Of a stretch of DNA of 64,000 nucleotides, positions 13,099 through 29,090 are shown in pieces (within the stretch, counting starts at the first letter, position 1; every line of letters begins with the position of its first letter). Made by a program: the position numbers and the translations under genes. A model generated the notes under the pieces. The model ran no database searches. It was not told the DNA's origin and worked only from the letters and a program-made list of their open reading frames with translations. This DNA comes from an uncultured bacterium (GTDB taxonomy: Bacteria; Babelota; Babeliae; Babelales; JACPOV01), in the NCBI GenBank assembly GCA_963744715.1, contig CAVUUR010000007.1, positions 96,001 through 160,000 on the forward strand, given 5' to 3'.

Positions 13099-14505
13099 TT
13101 ATCCTATTACTTCATTATTAGCAATTGCTTTACTATACCTTTTGCCTAATAAAATTGCAGTTACCGTCCAAATAGCTACAACAACGGCAAAAAACACTGC
13201 GTGTAAAGACATGAAGAACGCGGAACCTAATAATTCAGCGAAAATATTAAACCCAGATGCTGTGGCGCGTGCCAATTTTGCACCAAAAGCATCAATCCAT
13301 GATTTTGACTTAAATTTCATTTCTTTAACCGTAGGAATATATAAACTTTCACGTACTGGTTGAGCAAATGCATAATTAATAGATTTAAATAAAGTATATA
13401 CTACTGACAATGAAAACCAATCATACGCCAACATACAATAGAGCAATAAAAGACCGGTTGAAAGGGGAACTAGTAATAAACACTTTTCTTCACCCAATTT
13501 TTTTAATAATGCTCGCGTACCTATGAGCGAAATCAAAAACCCAGATAAATGTAAAAAGAAGGATTGTTGAAACAGAAAACAACTTAAATCAGAAATGTTA
13601 TTAGAAGATGAGTGCGCAACACCCAATCTTTGATAACTTAACACTTTATTGACCATCTCATAGAAAAACAACATGCCAAAAATGCCTAAAATATAGGGCC
13701 ATTTTATCATCATAGAAAGTCCTGAAAAAACTCCCATAGGCTGCTGGGATTCGGTACTTTCTTCACTGCGTTGTTTTTCAAATTGATATACGGCTTCATA
13801 ACCATGCAAATTTTTTCCTGGTACCTTTTTAATAAGCATGTAAATCATAAAAGGTACAAAAAACGCTAATAACGAGAAGAAAATGAGCAAAATCTGGTGA
13901 TTCGTGACATCAGAAAAAAAACGTGCCCCGCCAAATTTAGGCGTTAATAAAATCCATGCCAATCCAGCACTTAACATACCACCTATTTTGGACATAGCTA
14001 CCATAAGACCATAATTATTTTTAGCAGCTTCTGGACTATTTATAGAGTTAGCAAAAGCCCAAAAAACGCTGACAACAAAAGGGGTAAAGCCTTCAACAAA
14101 AAAATAAAAAAACCACCCAAATAAACGAACAGGGCTTGTCTGCGTATTATGTAAACCGATTACCGGGTCACCGAGCAAATAGGCACAGGCAAAACCAACA
14201 ATACTATAAAAAAAGCTGTAAATATACAGCAACTGATAGCGCCTAACTTTATCAACAAGAAATGAATAAAAAAGCACCGCGGGTATTAAAACAACAAATT
14301 CTAATAAATTAGCCCAAGGAATATATTCTCTACCAACAATGGCGATAAAAAAGGAATCTCTAAGGTCTCTAATTATCGTGTATGCACCAATAACCAAAAA
14401 AAAGGTAGCCGATAATAATATTAATTTTAAATGTTCACCTTTGTCAGCCACTTTAAAGGCAGTAAGTTTTCGTGCAAAATTAAAACTCATATAGCTTCCT
14501 ATCAA
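13099..14505 (-). CDS. ADP/ATP translocase / nucleotide transporter (TLC/NTT family)
   Basis: Multi-TM protein; RDLRDS, FWAFAN, KSINYA, LYIPT, FKSKSWIDAFGAK. Confidence 0.9.
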   Translation of the reverse strand: MIGSYMSFNFARKLTAFKVADKGEHLKLILLSATFFLVIGAYTIIRDLRDSFFIAIVGREYIPWANLLEFVVLIPAVLFYSFLVDKVRRYQLLYIYSFFYSIVGFACAYLLGDPVIGLHNTQTSPVRLFGWFFYFFVEGFTPFVVSVFWAFANSINSPEAAKNNYGLMVAMSKIGGMLSAGLAWILLTPKFGGARFFSDVTNHQILLIFFSLLAFFVPFMIYMLIKKVPGKNLHGYEAVYQFEKQRSEESTESQQPMGVFSGLSMMIKWPYILGIFGMLFFYEMVNKVLSYQRLGVAHSSSNNISDLSCFLFQQSFFLHLSGFLISLIGTRALLKKLGEEKCLLLVPLSTGLLLLYCMLAYDWFSLSVVYTLFKSINYAFAQPVRESLYIPTVKEMKFKSKSWIDAFGAKLARATASGFNIFAELLGSAFFMSLHAVFFAVVVAIWTVTAILLGKRYSKAIANNEVIG

Positions 14506-14623: not shown

Positions 14624-16036
14624 TTAAACTACGATACGATTTTCGTCAACCGCTTTATTAAATTTCTTTCCTAGAAACAAGGTTATGGGGAACCAAACGC
14701 CAATGATTATTAATGAAGCAACCGTACAGGTAGTAATAAATTTATTCAATCCTGCTACAGCGCCATAATTAGCCATATAGGTTTTACGCCACAAATTCAC
14801 GGTTGATCCTAACGCTTTTGAACCACGTGAACCGTACGTTTCAATAAACGCTTGCGATTTATATTTAGCTTCTTTACTGGTTGGAATATACAGTTGCTTC
14901 ATGGTTGGCTGATTTAAACCATAATTGATAGCCTTTGAAAGCACCATAATCCAGAATAAAACACTGATGAAAGGATATGCTTTAAAGGTCAATACAACAC
15001 ATGCTACTAGTATTGGTAAGGATGCTAATGCAGCACCAAGCCCTAAGTATTTTTGAATATTATTAATTTTCAACGAAATACTTAAAAGAGAAATAAGCCC
15101 TACCCATATACCGTAGTAACCTAGGTACACGGTTGCATCATGCGGATTAGGGTATACATCGTTAACAAAGGTCTTAAAATTGAAGTCGAGCACCGTAATA
15201 ATTACCTCATACGAAGTAATTATGGCAAAAATACCAAGCAAATATGAAGAAGAAAGAATTAACCACAAGCCTTCAAAAAAGCCTGGTTCTTCATGATTTT
15301 TTTTATCATTTTTACCGTGATATCCTACTAACTGCTCCTTAGGGACTACTGAAACAAAATAACGAATTAACGCAATGATAACAAACATCATAGCAGCAAC
15401 AAAAACAACTGATCCTGCTAATACTGATGCGCTCGTTCTAGCAGCTTCTGCCGATAATTCTCCTTCAGGGCCAACCTCTATATGAAATAATTTTGTCATA
15501 ATCAAGATTAATGACAATGGGCCAAAAATGTTTCCTAATTGTCCGCCAAAAGCTACAACTGGATAACCACGCTCAGCTGATTCTGGTAACGTTGTATCAC
15601 CAACAAATGCCCAAAATAATGCAACGATGAGTGAACCAAAACTTTCAACGTACACATACCATGCCCATCCCCACCATCTATAAAAATTTGCAGGCCCAGA
15701 ACTTAATCCAAGTGATGGACTCCAGATAAGAAAGGCGAATAGCAATGCTATTGATCCGTAGATGGTACATAATGCATAAAACATTTTTTCACGAGGAAAA
15801 ATGTCTACCAACTTAGAATAAATTAAAATAAGAGGGAAAACGACAATCATCGAAAGAAATTTTGCTTGAGGAATATAGTTAGCCCCCACAACGTTCATAA
15901 ATACTGAATCTTTAAGTGGACGCAAAAACCAGTACGATCCAATTACTAATCCAAATATAAATGATAAAAGTCCAAACTTTTTAAGTTCTCCTTCTTTAAA
16001 ATCTCCCCACCACAAGCGAGTAATTTTGGCAAACAT
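14624..16036 (-). CDS. ADP/ATP translocase / nucleotide transporter (TLC/NTT family)
   Basis: YWFLRPLKDS, ESFGSLIVALFWAF, KAINYGLNQPTMKQLYIPT, YKSQAFIE..GSRGSK. Confidence 0.92.
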   Translation of the reverse strand: MFAKITRLWWGDFKEGELKKFGLLSFIFGLVIGSYWFLRPLKDSVFMNVVGANYIPQAKFLSMIVVFPLILIYSKLVDIFPREKMFYALCTIYGSIALLFAFLIWSPSLGLSSGPANFYRWWGWAWYVYVESFGSLIVALFWAFVGDTTLPESAERGYPVVAFGGQLGNIFGPLSLILIMTKLFHIEVGPEGELSAEAARTSASVLAGSVVFVAAMMFVIIALIRYFVSVVPKEQLVGYHGKNDKKNHEEPGFFEGLWLILSSSYLLGIFAIITSYEVIITVLDFNFKTFVNDVYPNPHDATVYLGYYGIWVGLISLLSISLKINNIQKYLGLGAALASLPILVACVVLTFKAYPFISVLFWIMVLSKAINYGLNQPTMKQLYIPTSKEAKYKSQAFIETYGSRGSKALGSTVNLWRKTYMANYGAVAGLNKFITTCTVASLIIIGVWFPITLFLGKKFNKAVDENRIVV

Positions 16037-16469
16037 ATAATCCTCTCTGTTATACCATTATTTTAATATATTTTTACTTAAGTTATATTTTCACGAATTA
16101 CTATATTAAAGATTAATCATTTGTAAAAATTCTGCAAGCATAGTCTACAAAAACCCTTTTTTCATACCATTTTTTTAATTTCAATTATATACCATTCTAG
16201 CTTTTATACTATCAAAAATAGCTAATTTAAGGAATAATACCATAATTTTATTAATACTACCCATTATGACATTTACTAACCATCTATTCTTTGATACAAT
16301 TAAACTATCTTAAAAAAAATTATTAAGCAGCTTTCCTGAATGAAATAGGCAATAAAAAAGCTGTAGCTTTAATAATTACCGTAAAAAAATTAATTTAGAA
16401 AAATATATCGTTTTTCTATTATTTTTATTATCAAATAGAAATTGTTGTATCTTGAAATTAAGGCGACTT

Positions 16470-18921
16470 ATGACAGCAGATGAAATAAAACATCAACAAG
16501 AGGATTCACTTTCTGAAAAAAATAGCCTTTTGTTGCCACTTCTTCCGTTAAAAAATATTATTATTTTGCCAAAGAGCATACATCCCATTATTGTTGGAAG
16601 AGCTATTTCAATCAAAGCAGTTGAATATGCCTTAAATCATGATAAATCTATTTTTATTTCAACGCAAAAAGATCAAAAAGTAGAAAATCCAACCGAACAA
16701 GATGTTTTTGAATACGGCACCCGCGCTACTATTTTACAGATGATGCGCATGCCAAATGGATCATTAAAAATTTTAGTTGAAGGCATTTGCCGAGCAAAAA
16801 TAATCAAGGCTGAACAAATCAATGGTTTTTTGGCAGTGCATTGTCATGATTTACCAACTATAAATTTAGAAAAAACCATAGAAATAGAAGCATTATGGCG
16901 TCATCTAAAAAAGCTATATGAAGCTTACACAAAACTTAATGAAAAAGTGCCATTAGATCTTATGACCATGGCAAAAAATGTTGAAGACATGGATGCTATA
17001 GCCGATACCTTGGCAGTGCATTTAAATCTTTCTTTTGACGAACGCCAAGACATTTTAGAAACCAATGATTTACAAGAACGGCTTATTAAACTTAATAAAT
17101 TTTTGTCTAAAGAAATCGAAATTCTTGAAACGGAACAGCGCATCAAGGGAAGAATTCAAACGCAAGTTGAAAAAAGCCAACGCGAATATTATTTGACTGA
17201 ACAAATTAAAGCTATTCAAAAAGAATTAGGCCGCGAAGATCAACAAAGCAGAAATTCTACAAATACGCGCTAAATTAAAAACATTAGGTCTTTCACCAGA
17301 AGCTGCTGAAAAAGTTGATAAAGAGCTTCGCCGCTTGAACAAATGCCCCCGCTTTCATCAGAAGCGGTTGTTTCTCGCCATTATATTGATTGGATTATTT
17401 CATTGCCATGGAAAAAACAAAGTAAAGACACCATCAGTCTTCCGCAAGCAGAAAAAATTCTTAATAAAAAACATGCGGGGCTTATAAAAGCCTAAAGAAC
17501 GTATTATCGAGTTTTTAGCAGCAAAAAAATTTTCTAAAACAATTGAACGATCTCCTATTATTTGCCTTGTTGGCCCTCCTGGTGTTGGGAAAACATCACT
17601 CGCACATTCTATTGCAGAAAGTTTAGGTCGAGAATTTGTACGAATTTCATTGGTGGTATTCGTGATGAAGCTGAAGTACGAGGACATCGAAGAACATATA
17701 TCGGCGCACTTCCTGGCAAAATTATTCAAGCAATGAGAAAAGCAAAAACGCTCAATCCGGTCATTTTCCTTGATGAAATAGATAAGATCTCGCGTGATGT
17801 ACATGGCGATCCGGCAGCAGCATTACTTGAAGTACTTGATCCGGAACAAAATAAAGCATTCGTTGATCATTTTTTAGAAATTGAATACAATCTCTCAAAA
17901 GTAATGTTTATAGCTACGGCAAATATGATTGAAGGGATTCCTTTTCCACTTTTTGATCGAATGGAAATTATCACGCTGCCTGGTTATACGGAAGCATGAA
18001 AAGGTAGACATTGGCCACCAATTTCTTATTGCCTAAAAATTTACAAGAATATGGCCTAACTTCAAGACAATTCAAAATTTCAAATGACATTATTGCAGAT
18101 AATTGTTTCACACTACACCAAAGAAGCTGGCGTCCGCCAACTTGAACGTATCATTGCGAAATTAATGCGTAAAACTATTCAAGTTTTATTAAATGATAAA
18201 GAAGTAAAAAGTGTTACTATCACTCATGACCTATTAAAAGAATGGCTTGGTCAACCTAAATTTAAAAAAACAGTCCTTGATCAAACCAAAGAGCGCATTG
18301 GATTAGCAACAGGACTTGCTTGGACAGAATTTGGTGGCGATGTACTTGAAATTGAAGCAACGGTGATTATCAGGCAAAGGCGCGCTTAACCTTAACTGGT
18401 CAACTTGGTGAAGTCATGCAAGAATCTGCTCACGCAGCTTTAAGTTATATACGTTCACGCGCAACAGAGCTTAGGACTTTCCAATGGCGTTTTATGCTTC
18501 AAAAGATATTCATATTCACATTCCTGAAGGAGCTACACCAAAAGATGGTCCTTCTGCAGGCATAACCATGTGCGTTGCTCTCGTTTCAGCACTTACAAAA
18601 AATCCAACGTTACCTGATGTTGCTATGACTGGAGAACTTACCTTGCGGGGAAGAGTTCTTTCTATCGGGGGACTCAAAGAAAAACTTCTTGCCGCCCAAC
18701 AACATGATATTAAAACAGTGTTGGTACCAAAAGAAAACGCCGATGACGTCGATGAAATCTTAAAAGAAATTAAGATCAATCTTAATATTGTTTTTGTTGA
18801 TAATATGGATGAGGTATTAAAACAGGCATTGTCACACGATCCATTCAAAAAAAATAATAGTAAAATAGCGCATGAAAAAAAACGCAAAGAACTGAGTAAT
18901 AAGAAAAAATCACGTAAATAA
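16470..18921 (+). pseudogene. lon: Lon protease broken by many frameshifts (probably sequence error)
   Basis: Fragments in different frames: LON_N domain, [49 protein letters not shown]. Confidence 0.9.
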
Positions 18922-25682: not shown

Positions 25683-27113
25683 ATGATTAATCAAAACAAA
25701 CAAACCCAGCCACAACAAAAAACCGTTGTTCCGGGAAATCAAAGAAACTACAATGAAGTAGTTGAGTTTCTTGACGCACGTTGGCAGTTAAAACTTAATG
25801 ACAAGGAATTGCATAATATTAAAGCTTTGGATAAGGCCCTTGGCAACATTTCTAAGCAAATACCAACTATTTTAGTTGGTGGAACCAATGGAAAAGGTTT
25901 AACTATTAATTTTGCCGCTACTCTTCTCAAAGAAGAAGGCTTAAAAGTTGGTGCTTTATATTCTCCGCATATTCTTACGTACAACGAACGCTTAACCATC
26001 AATAATGAAACAATTTCTAATAAAGCGTTTACTGAAGTTGCTAATGAAGTAATTAATGTTGCCGAATCTAATAACATTAAAGCACATTCTCTTGAATTAT
26101 TAATTATGATGGGATTGCTCTATTTCAAACAAAGCGGTGCTGATCTTGCTATATTAGAAATAACTGATGGTACCGTATATGAACCTTTAGCTATTTTTAG
26201 CCCTAATATTATCGCGATAACTCGTGTTGTTGATAATAATACCGTAGTGCCAAACCCGGCTGTTATGGAAAAAACCATTAAAGAAATCCTTACTATAGCC
26301 AAAAAGAATACCTACGTTGTTTCTGCTGATCAAAGCAAGGCAAACTTGCAAATTATGCTTGAAGAAACAAAGAAACATGATGGTGTTTGGTCTATGCCAA
26401 TTCGTAAATTAGCACAATTAAGCTATCCTTTTGAGCAATTACACGGACGTTGTGCTGCACTTGCTGAACGAATTTGCCAAATTTATATCAATCATGTTGC
26501 TAATAAAAATGCGGTTGTAGTAGAACATAGTTTATTAGCAAAACAACCGGGAAAACGTGGTCGTCCAACGCTCAAACAAAAACAACAAGACGCCATGAAC
26601 CCTAAGAAAACCGTTGATCAATTTTGGAAAGAAATTACAACATCGTTGCCAGCGCATTTCCAAGTTCTTGATAAAGAAAAACCAACCATATTATTGGATA
26701 ATGCAAGCAATATCGATGCATTAGAAAATCTTCTTTTAGGGATTAGATTATTACATTATCGACGTCCATTAAAAGGATTGACCTTCATTTTTGGTTGCGA
26801 TAAAAATACTATAAATACTGAAGAATTTTTACGACTCCTTCGTTATTTTTCAAAGAAGAACTCAGGAAATATTATTTTCTGTCCTATTAACAATAATATT
26901 ACTGGCATCAAAACTGAATCATGGGATGTTGAACAAATTACCAATGATGTAAAAAGCTTGAAAATTAAAGCAAAATCAGCCAAAAACTTTGAAGATGCAT
27001 TTGACCAAGCTAAAAAATCAAATGTTGATGAACGTTATGGTTTGATTGTTATTTCAGGTTCAAAGTCAATTATTTCTGAATACTGGCATCTTAAAGGGAT
27101 AAAAAAACTATAA
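25683..27113 (+). CDS. divergent FolC/Mur-ligase-family protein
   Basis: GTNGKG P-loop and YSPHILTYNER retained; other FolC motifs degenerate. Confidence 0.75.
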   Translation: MINQNKQTQPQQKTVVPGNQRNYNEVVEFLDARWQLKLNDKELHNIKALDKALGNISKQIPTILVGGTNGKGLTINFAATLLKEEGLKVGALYSPHILTYNERLTINNETISNKAFTEVANEVINVAESNNIKAHSLELLIMMGLLYFKQSGADLAILEITDGTVYEPLAIFSPNIIAITRVVDNNTVVPNPAVMEKTIKEILTIAKKNTYVVSADQSKANLQIMLEETKKHDGVWSMPIRKLAQLSYPFEQLHGRCAALAERICQIYINHVANKNAVVVEHSLLAKQPGKRGRPTLKQKQQDAMNPKKTVDQFWKEITTSLPAHFQVLDKEKPTILLDNASNIDALENLLLGIRLLHYRRPLKGLTFIFGCDKNTINTEEFLRLLRYFSKKNSGNIIFCPINNNITGIKTESWDVEQITNDVKSLKIKAKSAKNFEDAFDQAKKSNVDERYGLIVISGSKSIISEYWHLKGIKKL

Positions 27114-27389
27114 TTGATTATGATTAGTTTTTTCTCTTTTGTTTTATCAGTATTAGTTGGTATTACAAGTGGTAGTATTTATGGGCTTTTGTTTTTGCGA
27201 ACAAAAGCCCTTCTCTTTTTAACGCAGAAATCATCAATATTTTTATCATACCTGATTCCGATAGTACGGTTTATAGTAATAAGTTGTTTTTTTCTCTATA
27301 TATTGCGAATCTCTTCTATTCATTCTATACTCGTACTAATAATCTTTTTAAGTACATTTTGGTTTATACTAATAAAAAAGGTCCTCTAA
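27114..27389 (+). CDS. small membrane protein, AtpI/AtpR-like
   Basis: Hydrophobic 91 aa, directly upstream of atpB. Confidence 0.55.
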   Translation: MIMISFFSFVLSVLVGITSGSIYGLLFLRTKALLFLTQKSSIFLSYLIPIVRFIVISCFFLYILRISSIHSILVLIIFLSTFWFILIKKVL

Positions 27390-27390
27390 C

Positions 27391-28131
27391 ATGAAATCTT
27401 TTGAGGGATTAGAACAAACTACCTGGAATCCCTTAAGTATTTTTGGACTGCATTATGAATTAGCAGAAATTAATATATCAACCATCATTAATACATGGGT
27501 AGTTCTAGGTATATTAATTACCTTATTAGTCCTGTGTCGAATCCTGATGCGCAACAGACGGGGGATTATCCACTATCTGGTAACGTCAAGTATCGTATCA
27601 TTTATGGATTTAGTAACACAGACCTTAGGATCTTTTATATATCCCTATTTCGCCTTAGTTCTTTCATTATTTATTTTTATTTTATTATGTAATTGGGCCA
27701 GCATCATTCCTTGGATGTCAGAACCAACTAAAGATCTTAATACAACCTTGGCGCTCGGACTAATCTCATTTTTTTATAAAGAAGTCGAAGGCATACGAGT
27801 ACGTGGATTTAAAAATTATTTAAAAGAATTTTTACAACCTTTTTTCATAATGTTTCCCGTTAACATTATTGGTCATTTCTCTAAAATAATTTCCATATCA
27901 TTTCGTTTATTTGGTAATATTTTTGGCGGATCAGTAATTATGGAACTGTATCAACATGCAATGGCCAGCTCTATACTGGCACAACTAGTAGGACTTTTTT
28001 CAGGAATTAATTTTCTTATTATTCTTTTTTTTGGTGTTTTTGAAGGCCTTATTCAAGCATTTGTTTTTGCTATGCTTACCTTAACCTATTTAACTATAGC
28101 TGTTTATGATGAACATGCAGGAGAACTATAG
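27391..28131 (+). CDS. atpB: ATP synthase F0 subunit a
   Basis: PTKDLNTTLAL, SISFRLFGNIFGG (essential Arg), IQAFVFAMLTLTY. Confidence 0.95.
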   Translation: MKSFEGLEQTTWNPLSIFGLHYELAEINISTIINTWVVLGILITLLVLCRILMRNRRGIIHYLVTSSIVSFMDLVTQTLGSFIYPYFALVLSLFIFILLCNWASIIPWMSEPTKDLNTTLALGLISFFYKEVEGIRVRGFKNYLKEFLQPFFIMFPVNIIGHFSKIISISFRLFGNIFGGSVIMELYQHAMASSILAQLVGLFSGINFLIILFFGVFEGLIQAFVFAMLTLTYLTIAVYDEHAGEL

Positions 28132-28133
28132 CA

Positions 28134-29090
28134 ATGACTGAATATATACATCTTTTTAATTATATCAGTATTGCCGGCATCGTAGGATGTACCACACTGG
28201 GCGTTGGCATAGGCAGTGGAAAATCAAGTTTTGCTGCATTACAAGCAATGAATATACAACCAAGTGCAAAACAAGAAATAACAAAAGCTACCATTATTGG
28301 ATTAGCATTAATTGAAACCGCAGCAATATTAGCATTGATCATTATTTTTTTAATATTTCCTTGGCAAGTTTCTTCTAATGAATATCAAGCACTTGCTAAA
28401 GTTGGCATAGCCTGTGCAATAGGCATAACAGGATTCATGTCGGGATTAGTTTCGGCGTATCCTCTTTCACAAGCATGTTACGCATTAGCACGCCAACCAT
28501 TTTTTAGTCAAAAAATTATAAATTTAATGCTCATAACGCAATCAATTATACAAACACCCCTCATCTTTGGATTTCTTGTTTCTCTGGCCATTATAGGGCA
28601 ATTAGAATCTATCAACACACTTACACAAAGCCTTATGGTTATTGCCAGCGGCCTTGCCATAGGAGTTGGTTCAATAGGCCCGATTATTGGGTTAGCAAAA
28701 TTTGCCCAAACCGCATGCCAAAGTATTAGTATTAATAAAAAAGCATATAATCAACTTATACCATTTACCTTTATGAGCCAGGCAATCATAGAAACACCTA
28801 TTATTTTTGCCTTACTTATTTCTCTCATTATAATAGGAAGTTTACATCGCACTAATATAACATTATTAACGGCTGTTCAGGCATTAGCAGCATCGCTATG
28901 CATAGGAATTGGCACTATTTCTCCGGGATTAAGCTCAAGCAAGACCGCCTCAAATGCTTGCAAACAAATCGCCCTTAATCCGCAACACTACAGAAAAATT
29001 TCTCAGATAAGTCTCTTTGGACAAGGCCTTATTGATGCTGCCGCTGTGTATGCTTTACTCATTTCACTTTTTATAGTATTGCTTAAATAA
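28134..29090 (+). CDS. atpE: ATP synthase F0 subunit c, four fused hairpin repeats
   Basis: Four Gly-rich helix/loop/helix units; ion-site positions IETAAI, IQTPLI, IETPII, IDAAAV; follows atpB. Confidence 0.85.
   Translation: MTEYIHLFNYISIAGIVGCTTLGVGIGSGKSSFAALQAMNIQPSAKQEITKATIIGLALIETAAILALIIIFLIFPWQVSSNEYQALAKVGIACAIGITGFMSGLVSAYPLSQACYALARQPFFSQKIINLMLITQSIIQTPLIFGFLVSLAIIGQLESINTLTQSLMVIASGLAIGVGSIGPIIGLAKFAQTACQSISINKKAYNQLIPFTFMSQAIIETPIIFALLISLIIIGSLHRTNITLLTAVQALAASLCIGIGTISPGLSSSKTASNACKQIALNPQHYRKISQISLFGQGLIDAAAVYALLISLFIVLLK

Follow-up and report, generated by a model that had tools for sequence, protein, structure and literature searches.

The window, a stretch of 64,000 nucleotides on contig C7 of a 1.26-Mb, 86% complete genome, carries three consecutive Fo genes of an F-type ATPase (Table 1). 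These encode an AtpI/AtpR-like small membrane protein, subunit a (AtpB), and a c subunit of four fused hairpins, hereafter c4, whose open frame starts 2 nt past the atpB stop and runs for 318 codons with no internal stop. The small membrane protein has no Pfam match of its own. Its position upstream of atpB recurs across loci, and 6 of 13 positional homologues have weak, below-cut-off matches to ATP-synt_I or AtpR. Subunit a conserves Arg172 and Gln222 in 69 of 69 sequences and Glu218 in 67 of 69. The last of these residues, four positions before Gln222, is replaced by Val, Thr, or Ile in the four best solved a subunits and in eight outgroup sequences. A FolC/Mur-ligase-like ORF (25683-27113; weak PF02875 match, below cut-off) stops 1 nt ahead of the AtpI-like gene, and downstream of c4 there is a glycosyltransferase gene, so the Fo genes are embedded in a mixed gene run. 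A promoter/terminator scan gave counts at chance level (32 vs. 28.0 +/- 5.3; 7 vs. 4.3 +/- 1.8).

Table 1. Features of the c4 locus and of its context, in window coordinates.
Feature	Position	Strand	Details	Evidence
ATP/ADP translocase family protein	13099..14505	-	Context	PF03219, 56 bits (cut-off 21)
ATP/ADP translocase family protein	14624..16036	-	Context	PF03219, 123 bits
AtpI/AtpR-like small membrane protein	27114..27389	+	91 aa; likely c-ring assembly factor	ORF, position
atpB, F-type subunit a	27391..28131	+	246 aa; Arg172, Gln222, lineage-typical Glu218	PF00119, E 5.5e-38
c4, four-hairpin F-type c subunit	28134..29090	+	318 aa	ORF, PF00137, genome search, AlphaFold2 model
c4 hairpin 1	28137..28367	+	Residues 2-78; loop NIQP (40); site Glu61 (codon 28314-28316)	Alignment, model
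c4 hairpin 2	28380..28610	+	Residues 83-159; loop ARQP (119); site Gln140 (codon 28551-28553)	Alignment
c4 hairpin 3	28620..28838	+	Residues 163-235; loop SINK (199); site Glu220 (codon 28791-28793) in E-T-P motif	Alignment
c4 hairpin 4	28863..29081	+	Residues 244-316; loop ALNP (280); site Asp301 (codon 29034-29036); Tyr306	Alignment

The first-pass annotation read this gene as a 318-aa c subunit fused as four hairpins, with the loops NIQP, ARQP, SINK, and ALNP and the ion-site residues E, Q, E, and D, and the same loops and residues (E61, Q140, E220, and D301) were found here. The ATP-synt_C profile (PF00137), for which four matches had been expected, aligns with four stretches of c4 (E 8e-28, 96.9 bits against a cut-off of 24), and a genome search with this profile returns four separate over-cut-off matches inside one 325-codon open frame at the locus. 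The AlphaFold2 model, built from an alignment of 137 rows, likewise consists of four helix-loop-helix hairpins with breaks at the four loops (pLDDT 97.2, pTM 0.94). Because the hairpins share 17-23 of 69 residues and 43-49% of their DNA, the repeat is, judged by its divergence, ancient and no duplication made in assembly. An assembly artefact is ruled out by these old, diverged repeats together with hundreds of independent homologues; contigs of sequencing run X1 span 26900-28334 only and those of X2 are short pieces, so that the hairpin junctions are not spanned. The hairpin tree (77 rows, 65 columns) was weak and did not resolve the order of the duplications.

The assignment of c4 to the F-type is based on its ATP-synt_C hairpins and on the F-type partners a, b, delta, alpha, gamma, beta, and epsilon in the genome. 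The V/A-type proteolipids, including Enterococcus hirae K, eukaryotic Vo c, and the 13-hairpin K of Methanopyrus kandleri, also have fused hairpins and lost sites, and their fold is similar to that of c4 (Z 12.8-14.0 over about 150 residues). A V/A-type K subunit is nevertheless ruled out by the F-type partners, by the lack of a V-type a match (PF01496) over cut-off in any of 61 genomes, and by the better scores of the F-type c models, which head the list for c4 with E-values of 4e-30 to 2e-11 compared to 2e-8 or worse for the subunit K models. Two other long proteolipids deserve mention. P0241 (1139 aa), a 15-hairpin protein named from Promethearchaeota with Hodarchaeota and Thorarchaeota in its cluster, exceeds the 13-hairpin subunit of Methanopyrus in length. 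A 13-hairpin c, P0187 (968 aa, cluster of 12), has F-type-like E-S-x-x-x-Y motifs and a strong enrichment of Trp at expected Gly positions, as if it came from a lineage reading TGA as Gly, as Gracilibacteria do, and it possibly forms an F-type ring from one gene.

The rest of the enzyme is distributed over the genome. A canonical single-hairpin atpE, whose occurrence elsewhere in the genome the first-pass annotation had counted as contrary to its reading, is present on contig C6 as the fifth PF00137 match (G000:C6:25366-25635). It heads the gene order atpE-b'-b-delta-alpha, in which delta matches PF00213 (E 4e-19) and b' and b, without a Pfam b match, are assigned by position, length, and leading hydrophobic stretch. 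Contig C2 carries beta and an epsilon of 79 aa, and C9 carries gamma. The F-type set of a, b', b, delta, alpha, gamma, beta, and epsilon thus occupies four clusters, which in the Dependentiae are I-a-c4, c-b'-b-delta-alpha, gamma, and beta-epsilon. Genomes assembled as a single contig (e.g., G053, G027, and G025) likewise have a wide distance between the two c genes. A second, diverged copy of the atpD end and atpC, with a different tail, lies 5 kb from the intact pair (G000:C2:9898-10230). In this genome, a, alpha, beta, and gamma are each encoded once, and the PF00006 matches comprise alpha, beta, and a Rho-like frame only. Among the relatives, one a gene is found in 60 of 61 genomes and one gamma in 40 of 41, with two in none. 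Since there are two c genes but one a, alpha, beta, and gamma, both c genes appear to feed one enzyme, although absences have limited weight in a genome that is 86% complete. A stand-alone Fo was rejected.

N-ATPases resemble this set in three ways: an AtpR/AtpI-like gene precedes atpB, the beta-epsilon pair is separate from alpha and gamma, and the c is of the Na+ type. According to the available text of a recent preprint, they are without delta and occur as extra copies beside a main enzyme (bioRxiv 10.64898/2026.10.01.756066). An N-ATPase is ruled out here by the separate delta and by the detection of no other rotary ATPase in the genome.

The single c of this genome has a Na+ motif (Q, E-T-S-x-x-Y), with ligands of the Q32/E65/T66/S67/Y70 type. 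This motif is well conserved among 57 single c sequences (E 57/57, Q 55/57, Y 56/57); 39 of them satisfy the full Na+ rule and 14 more miss only the +2 ligand. By the ligand rule, therefore, the singles are of a predicted Na+ type. After the single c gene, 56 of 57 loci have a b'-like gene. Predicted ribosome-binding strengths of the single c and c4 do not differ (median -5.8 vs. -5.9, p = 0.71) and offer no indication of an excess of the single c.

Both c genes are widespread in the phylum. The c4 query (P0001) matches 201 of 201 phylum genomes, 200 of them at E<=1e-31, with exactly two matching places in 195, and the survey of relatives proposed in the first-pass annotation accordingly returned a fusion that is near-universal (200/201). 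The c4 homologues that carry names are from Candidatus Dependentiae and Babeliales. In total, 522 proteins match c4 at E<=0.001 with lengths of 174-557 aa, and the best 120 of the 522 have 309-331 aa. The gene adjoins atpB in 74 of 75 loci, six of which are the window's own. The single c was found in 198 of the 201 genomes at E<=1.8e-16, where the best 150 of the 198 matches lie in frames of 82-136 codons and the other 48 rest on a gap in E-values. Assembly gaps account for the three genomes without a match: G188 and G192 have no alpha, and the contig of G203 begins inside b. In addition, a Pfam search of 61 genomes found a short-frame c match in all 61.

The ion sites of c4 were compared in 70 distinct genome-derived proteins, a non-random set composed of the 30 best-scoring loci and 40 chosen to cover families, with P0001 duplicates collapsed and one subunit-a row (a weak E-value match) left out. 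The site pattern is EQED in 38, EEEE in 13, EQEE in 8, and others in 11. The carboxylate of hairpin 1 is kept in 70/70, the Glu of hairpin 3 in 66/70 along with a Pro at +2 in 68/70, and the carboxylate of hairpin 4 in 67/70 (D 43, E 24). Tyr at +5 is confined to hairpin 4 (69/70) and is absent from hairpins 1-3. At the hairpin 2 site there are 50 Q, 17 E, and 3 other residues. The loss of the carboxylate in repeat 2 that the first-pass annotation described therefore holds for this genome but not as a general rule, as E is also found in 26 of 128 full-length representatives, compared to 94 with Q (the full-length sequences among 150 listed cluster representatives, with three clearly outside the phylum excluded). 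The c4 tree, a quick version, and the subunit a tree (FastTree; 47 of 69 a sequences and 6 outgroup rows) both consist of two sister clades, one with Q and the other mostly with E at hairpin 2, so the ancestral residue is not fixed by the phylum alone. Because hairpin 2 has E in the sister clade, the four-hairpin fusion is, as read from these alignments, independent of the lost carboxylate, and the reading that the E-to-Q loss was the purpose of the fusion appears weakened.

The loops differ as well, with RQP in c4 hairpin 2 and G-K-x-P in the singles. RQP-type c loops bind the F1 stalk, and the ARQP loop of hairpin 2 is near-invariant (R 67/70, Q 67/70, P 70/70). Speculatively, this loop could be a docking position for the stalk.

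The Na+ site of a c ring consists of Gln/Glu32 and Glu65 of one hairpin and Ser66 and Val63 of the adjacent one, with Tyr70 bonded to Glu65, in the available portions of PMC3692424. When the preceding hairpin is taken as the donor of the second ligand set, c4 sites 2, 3, and 4 have the full set in 0 of 70 proteins. The Gln32-equivalent of hairpin 1 is Q or E in 52 of 70 relatives, and site 1 combines its own Q/E with E in 50 of 70; in this genome the residue is Ser and the combination is absent. We infer this order of donation in part from the E. hirae K structure, in which we take the donor hairpin to precede the site hairpin. The double-hairpin rule, as given in the accessible text of the preprint, points the same way (bioRxiv 10.64898/2026.10.01.756066). 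The inner c4 positions would thus be unable to bind Na+ in the known way. The strong conservation of Glu220 and Asp/Glu301 argues, in turn, that these sites are probably not dead, which would blunt any lowering of the ion/ATP ratio.

The usual view of a bacterial F-type rotor is a ring of identical single hairpins, to which the two-hairpin c1 of Acetobacterium woodii is the solved exception. This protein is the best solved relative of c4 both by sequence (4bem_J, E 5e-10) and by fold (Z 14.3, rmsd 1.7 over 155 residues). Designed helical repeats occupy the top three VIA-align rows and are taken to be alike in shape only (Z 14.6-20.5, rmsd 3.9-6.9, 6-13% identity). The hybrid rotors of A. woodii and Clostridium aceticum (c1 with c2/c3; PDB 4BEM) share with the Dependentiae a multi-hairpin c after atpB and a single c with a Na+ motif. 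Like c4, c1 has one hairpin with Gln in place of the carboxylate, Phe at +5 in the first hairpin, and Tyr in the last (alignments; available text of PMC7911925). The A. woodii ring is described as nine singles and one double subunit in the accessible preprint text (bioRxiv 10.64898/2026.10.01.756066), with 10 Na+ sites and 3.3 Na+ per ATP in the corresponding part of PMC7793690. In contrast to c1, c4 has four hairpins rather than two and three carboxylates, one of them Asp, rather than one ion site. It also has Pro at +2 in inner hairpins and an RQP loop on the fused subunit, the singles having K-x-P. Moreover, the c genes are in separate operons in the Dependentiae and in one atp operon in A. 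woodii, and the host of c4 belongs to an apparently respiration-less, likely parasitic lineage whereas A. woodii is an ATP-making acetogen. By analogy, c4 would work like the A. woodii hybrid rotor, yet it lacks two of its features (two hairpins, one operon) and is not filed here as a c1.

Parallels in gene order come from outside the phylum. A profile search (3052 matches at E<=0.001) and a search with P0233, a four-hairpin protein from outside the Dependentiae, revealed many F-type c proteins with four to six hairpins. Named carriers are Desulfobacterales, Desulfarculus, Deltaproteobacteria, Thermodesulfobacteriota, and one Pseudomonadota. Among 123 of these related proteins, 59 have the pattern EQQQQ, 25 EQQQQQ, and 20 EQQQE, and only 7 of 382 inner hairpins have E or D. 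Tyr at +5 is present in the last hairpin in 121/121 and in the first in 2/121, and Pro at +2 in 342/382 inner hairpins. The five- and six-hairpin group and c4 therefore have, at the level of aligned residues, the same design rules, with Tyr(+5) in the last hairpin only and Pro(+2) in inner hairpins of the Q-T-P kind. The order a, five-hairpin c, single c is found in 8 of 8 Thermodesulfobacteriota-type loci, three of which run on through b', b, delta, alpha, and gamma. These operons (L161-L168; about 4995-6500 in L161) encode an E-Q-Q-Q-Q c followed by a single c, and such rings pose the question of ATP synthesis past four neutral positions. The Dependentiae clusters look like this order broken between the two c genes, and the atp genes as a whole look like a split hybrid-rotor operon of the A. 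woodii kind.

P0240, a protein of this group, and c4 are 29% identical over 311 columns, and the two types of subunit a are 39% identical (145 bits). The group differs from c4 in being mostly E-Q-Q-Q-Q or E-Q-Q-Q-Q-Q, in having an intact operon, and in a subunit a without Glu218 (Val or Ile in 8/8). In profile comparisons, c4 hairpin 1 scores 84 with the first five-hairpin position against 70-75 with the others, hairpin 2 scores 88-94 with the inner positions against 56-57, and hairpin 4 scores 115 with the last position against 88-95. Hairpins 1, 3, and 4, however, score higher with the phylum's own single c (89, 101, and 123). As hairpins 3 and 4 are nearer to the own single c than to the five-hairpin family, common descent of c4 with that family is only suggested.

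In view of these comparisons, c4 likely stands beside several single c subunits in a mixed rotor of the only F-type ATPase, likely an ATP-driven pump, and we assign this reading a probability of about 0.7. The two proteins would co-assemble in one ring, with c4 probably present once and with the Tyr of its last hairpin completing the ion site of the subunit that follows. The singles would carry Na+, and since the inner c4 positions would bind no Na+ in the known way, the coupling ions per turn would be fewer than the hairpins. For an assumed ring of 11 hairpins (one c4 and seven singles), the 10 carboxylates would give 3.3 ions per ATP instead of 3.7, and 7-8 full Na+ sites would give 2.3-2.7. 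With fewer ions per ATP, the pump would hold a higher gradient. The location of the two c genes in different operons, unlike in A. woodii, counts against a mixed ring, as does the equal predicted ribosome binding of the two genes. Three prediction runs for a complex of c4 and four single c chains scored 0.48, 0.01, and 0.26, on both sides of the mark of 0.32 (median 0.26).

A bolder form, which we regard as rather unlikely, is a rotor for two ions. Here the singles would carry Na+ and the c4 arc, with carboxylates conserved but Na+ ligands lost, would carry H+ past a subunit a with an extra Glu, the whole being a parasite branch of a large, unrecognised family of four- to six-hairpin F-type subunits. 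If so, each turn driven by ATP would pump Na+ and H+ together, in a proportion set by the make-up of the ring.

A further alternative casts c4 chiefly as a template for ring assembly: together with AtpI and subunit a it would start or close the ring, its ion sites would be minor, and it might not set the gearing. The constant linkage to the atpI-like and atpB genes would agree with this, as would a variable site pattern at constant four-hairpin length (EQED 38, EEEE 13, EQEE 8, and others 11 of 70) and a divergence, down to 26% identity, that is faster than expected of a driving subunit. The carboxylates of hairpins 1, 3, and 4, kept in 70, 66, and 67 of 70, and Glu218 of subunit a (67/69, missing in 8/8 five-hairpin relatives) nevertheless both point to ion handling. 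We therefore judge a mainly templating role unlikely, and it would be compatible with the mixed ring if c4 stayed in it.

The first-pass annotation had envisaged a ring of tetramers only. Three copies of c4, for example, would provide 12 hairpins, 9 carboxylates, and 3.0 ions per ATP, with the single c otherwise used or idle. Such a ring would suit the place of c4 directly after atpB (74/75 loci, six the window's own) and the carboxylate in three of four hairpins, and the last hairpin could supply the Tyr that hairpin 1 of the following copy lacks; this Tyr fits both kinds of ring equally and does not discriminate between them. The proposal fares poorly against an intact, conserved single c kept in 198 of 201 genomes, with one stator and one F1 to serve and no second set of either. 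Furthermore, the related EQQQQ (59/123) and EQQQQQ (25/123) proteins would by themselves leave a ring short of sites, and their genes are followed by one for a single c. A c4-only ring is thus quite improbable. Two alternative homo-rings, c4-only and single-only, swapped on one stator and F1 by life stage or ion conditions, are very unlikely: separate operons would permit separate regulation, and the loops and ion ligands of the two proteins are sharply different, but a is tied to c4 and b', b, delta, and alpha to the single c, all are needed, so both clusters must be on together, and one operon still holds both c genes in the intact relatives.

The proposed mixed-ring enzyme likely runs as an ATP-driven ion pump on host ATP, and the bacterium is likely parasitic. 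Pumping on host ATP is supported independently by the two translocases in the window, by the lack of a detected respiratory chain, and by the short epsilon. The translocases had been pointed out in the first-pass annotation; both exceed the PF03219 cut-off, and the genome has three such genes in total. Searches of this 86%-complete genome for COX1, cytochrome bd, the complex I 49-kDa subunit, and Rnf/NQR gave no match. Epsilon frames have 79-112 codons in 38 of 41 genomes (the 38 with a match), a length that appears to leave no room for the C-terminal helices by which hydrolysis is restrained in other enzymes. ATP hydrolysis or reverse running has already been proposed for the phylum, with the c subunit unmentioned in the accessible portions of these papers (PMC4776705, PMC6561590), and members of the phylum are described in the latter as growing in protist hosts (PMC6561590). 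The first-pass annotation had also argued that fewer sites lower the ion/ATP ratio and favour pumping. Its direction of pumping is supported by the three lines above, but site loss alone does not establish it, since an enzyme with half the c sites can still make ATP, as stated in the available part of PMC9171764, and a reduced-site c is therefore compatible with synthesis.

Overall, c4 is real and phylum-wide. It is related to the known fused subunits of hybrid rotors, and no description of a four-hairpin F-type c was found in the literature searched, which did not extend to subscription papers; the supplements of the preprint may show such operons. In its available text, the preprint treats multi-hairpin subunits as mainly archaeal, and the terms 'Babel' and 'TM6' are absent from that text (bioRxiv 10.64898/2026.10.01.756066). 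PMC7911925 and PMC13343851, in their accessible portions, go no further than a c1 of two hairpins or several atpE copies. F-type c subunits of five and six hairpins were found in no paper as such, though Brandt and Muller (2015) may list longer subunits. A whole phylum that keeps a four-hairpin c beside a single c would extend hybrid rotors beyond A. woodii. The sulfate-reducer relatives, with five or six hairpins and almost all inner sites neutral, raise the question of how a ring turns past several successive ion-blind positions, and in these lineages the ion/ATP ratio would not be readable from atpE alone. The E-Q-E-D and E-E-E-E sister clades form a natural pair for relating site number to gearing and direction.

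Two further features of the genome were noted. A membrane pyrophosphatase (PF03030; G000:C6:174505-176649) has Ala at the K+-dependence marker position, which we take to denote the K+-dependent enzymes, a group that presumably includes Na+ pumps. A Lon protease-like gene, named by eye, extends across several frames at 16452-18921 of the window (ORFs 16452-17273, 17562-17999, 18084-18389, and 18484-18921). Further split genes, also named by eye, are Rho-like and SecF-like genes on C3 and an ABC ATPase on C2, and the occurrence of several such genes in the assembly makes indel errors or decay the likely cause.
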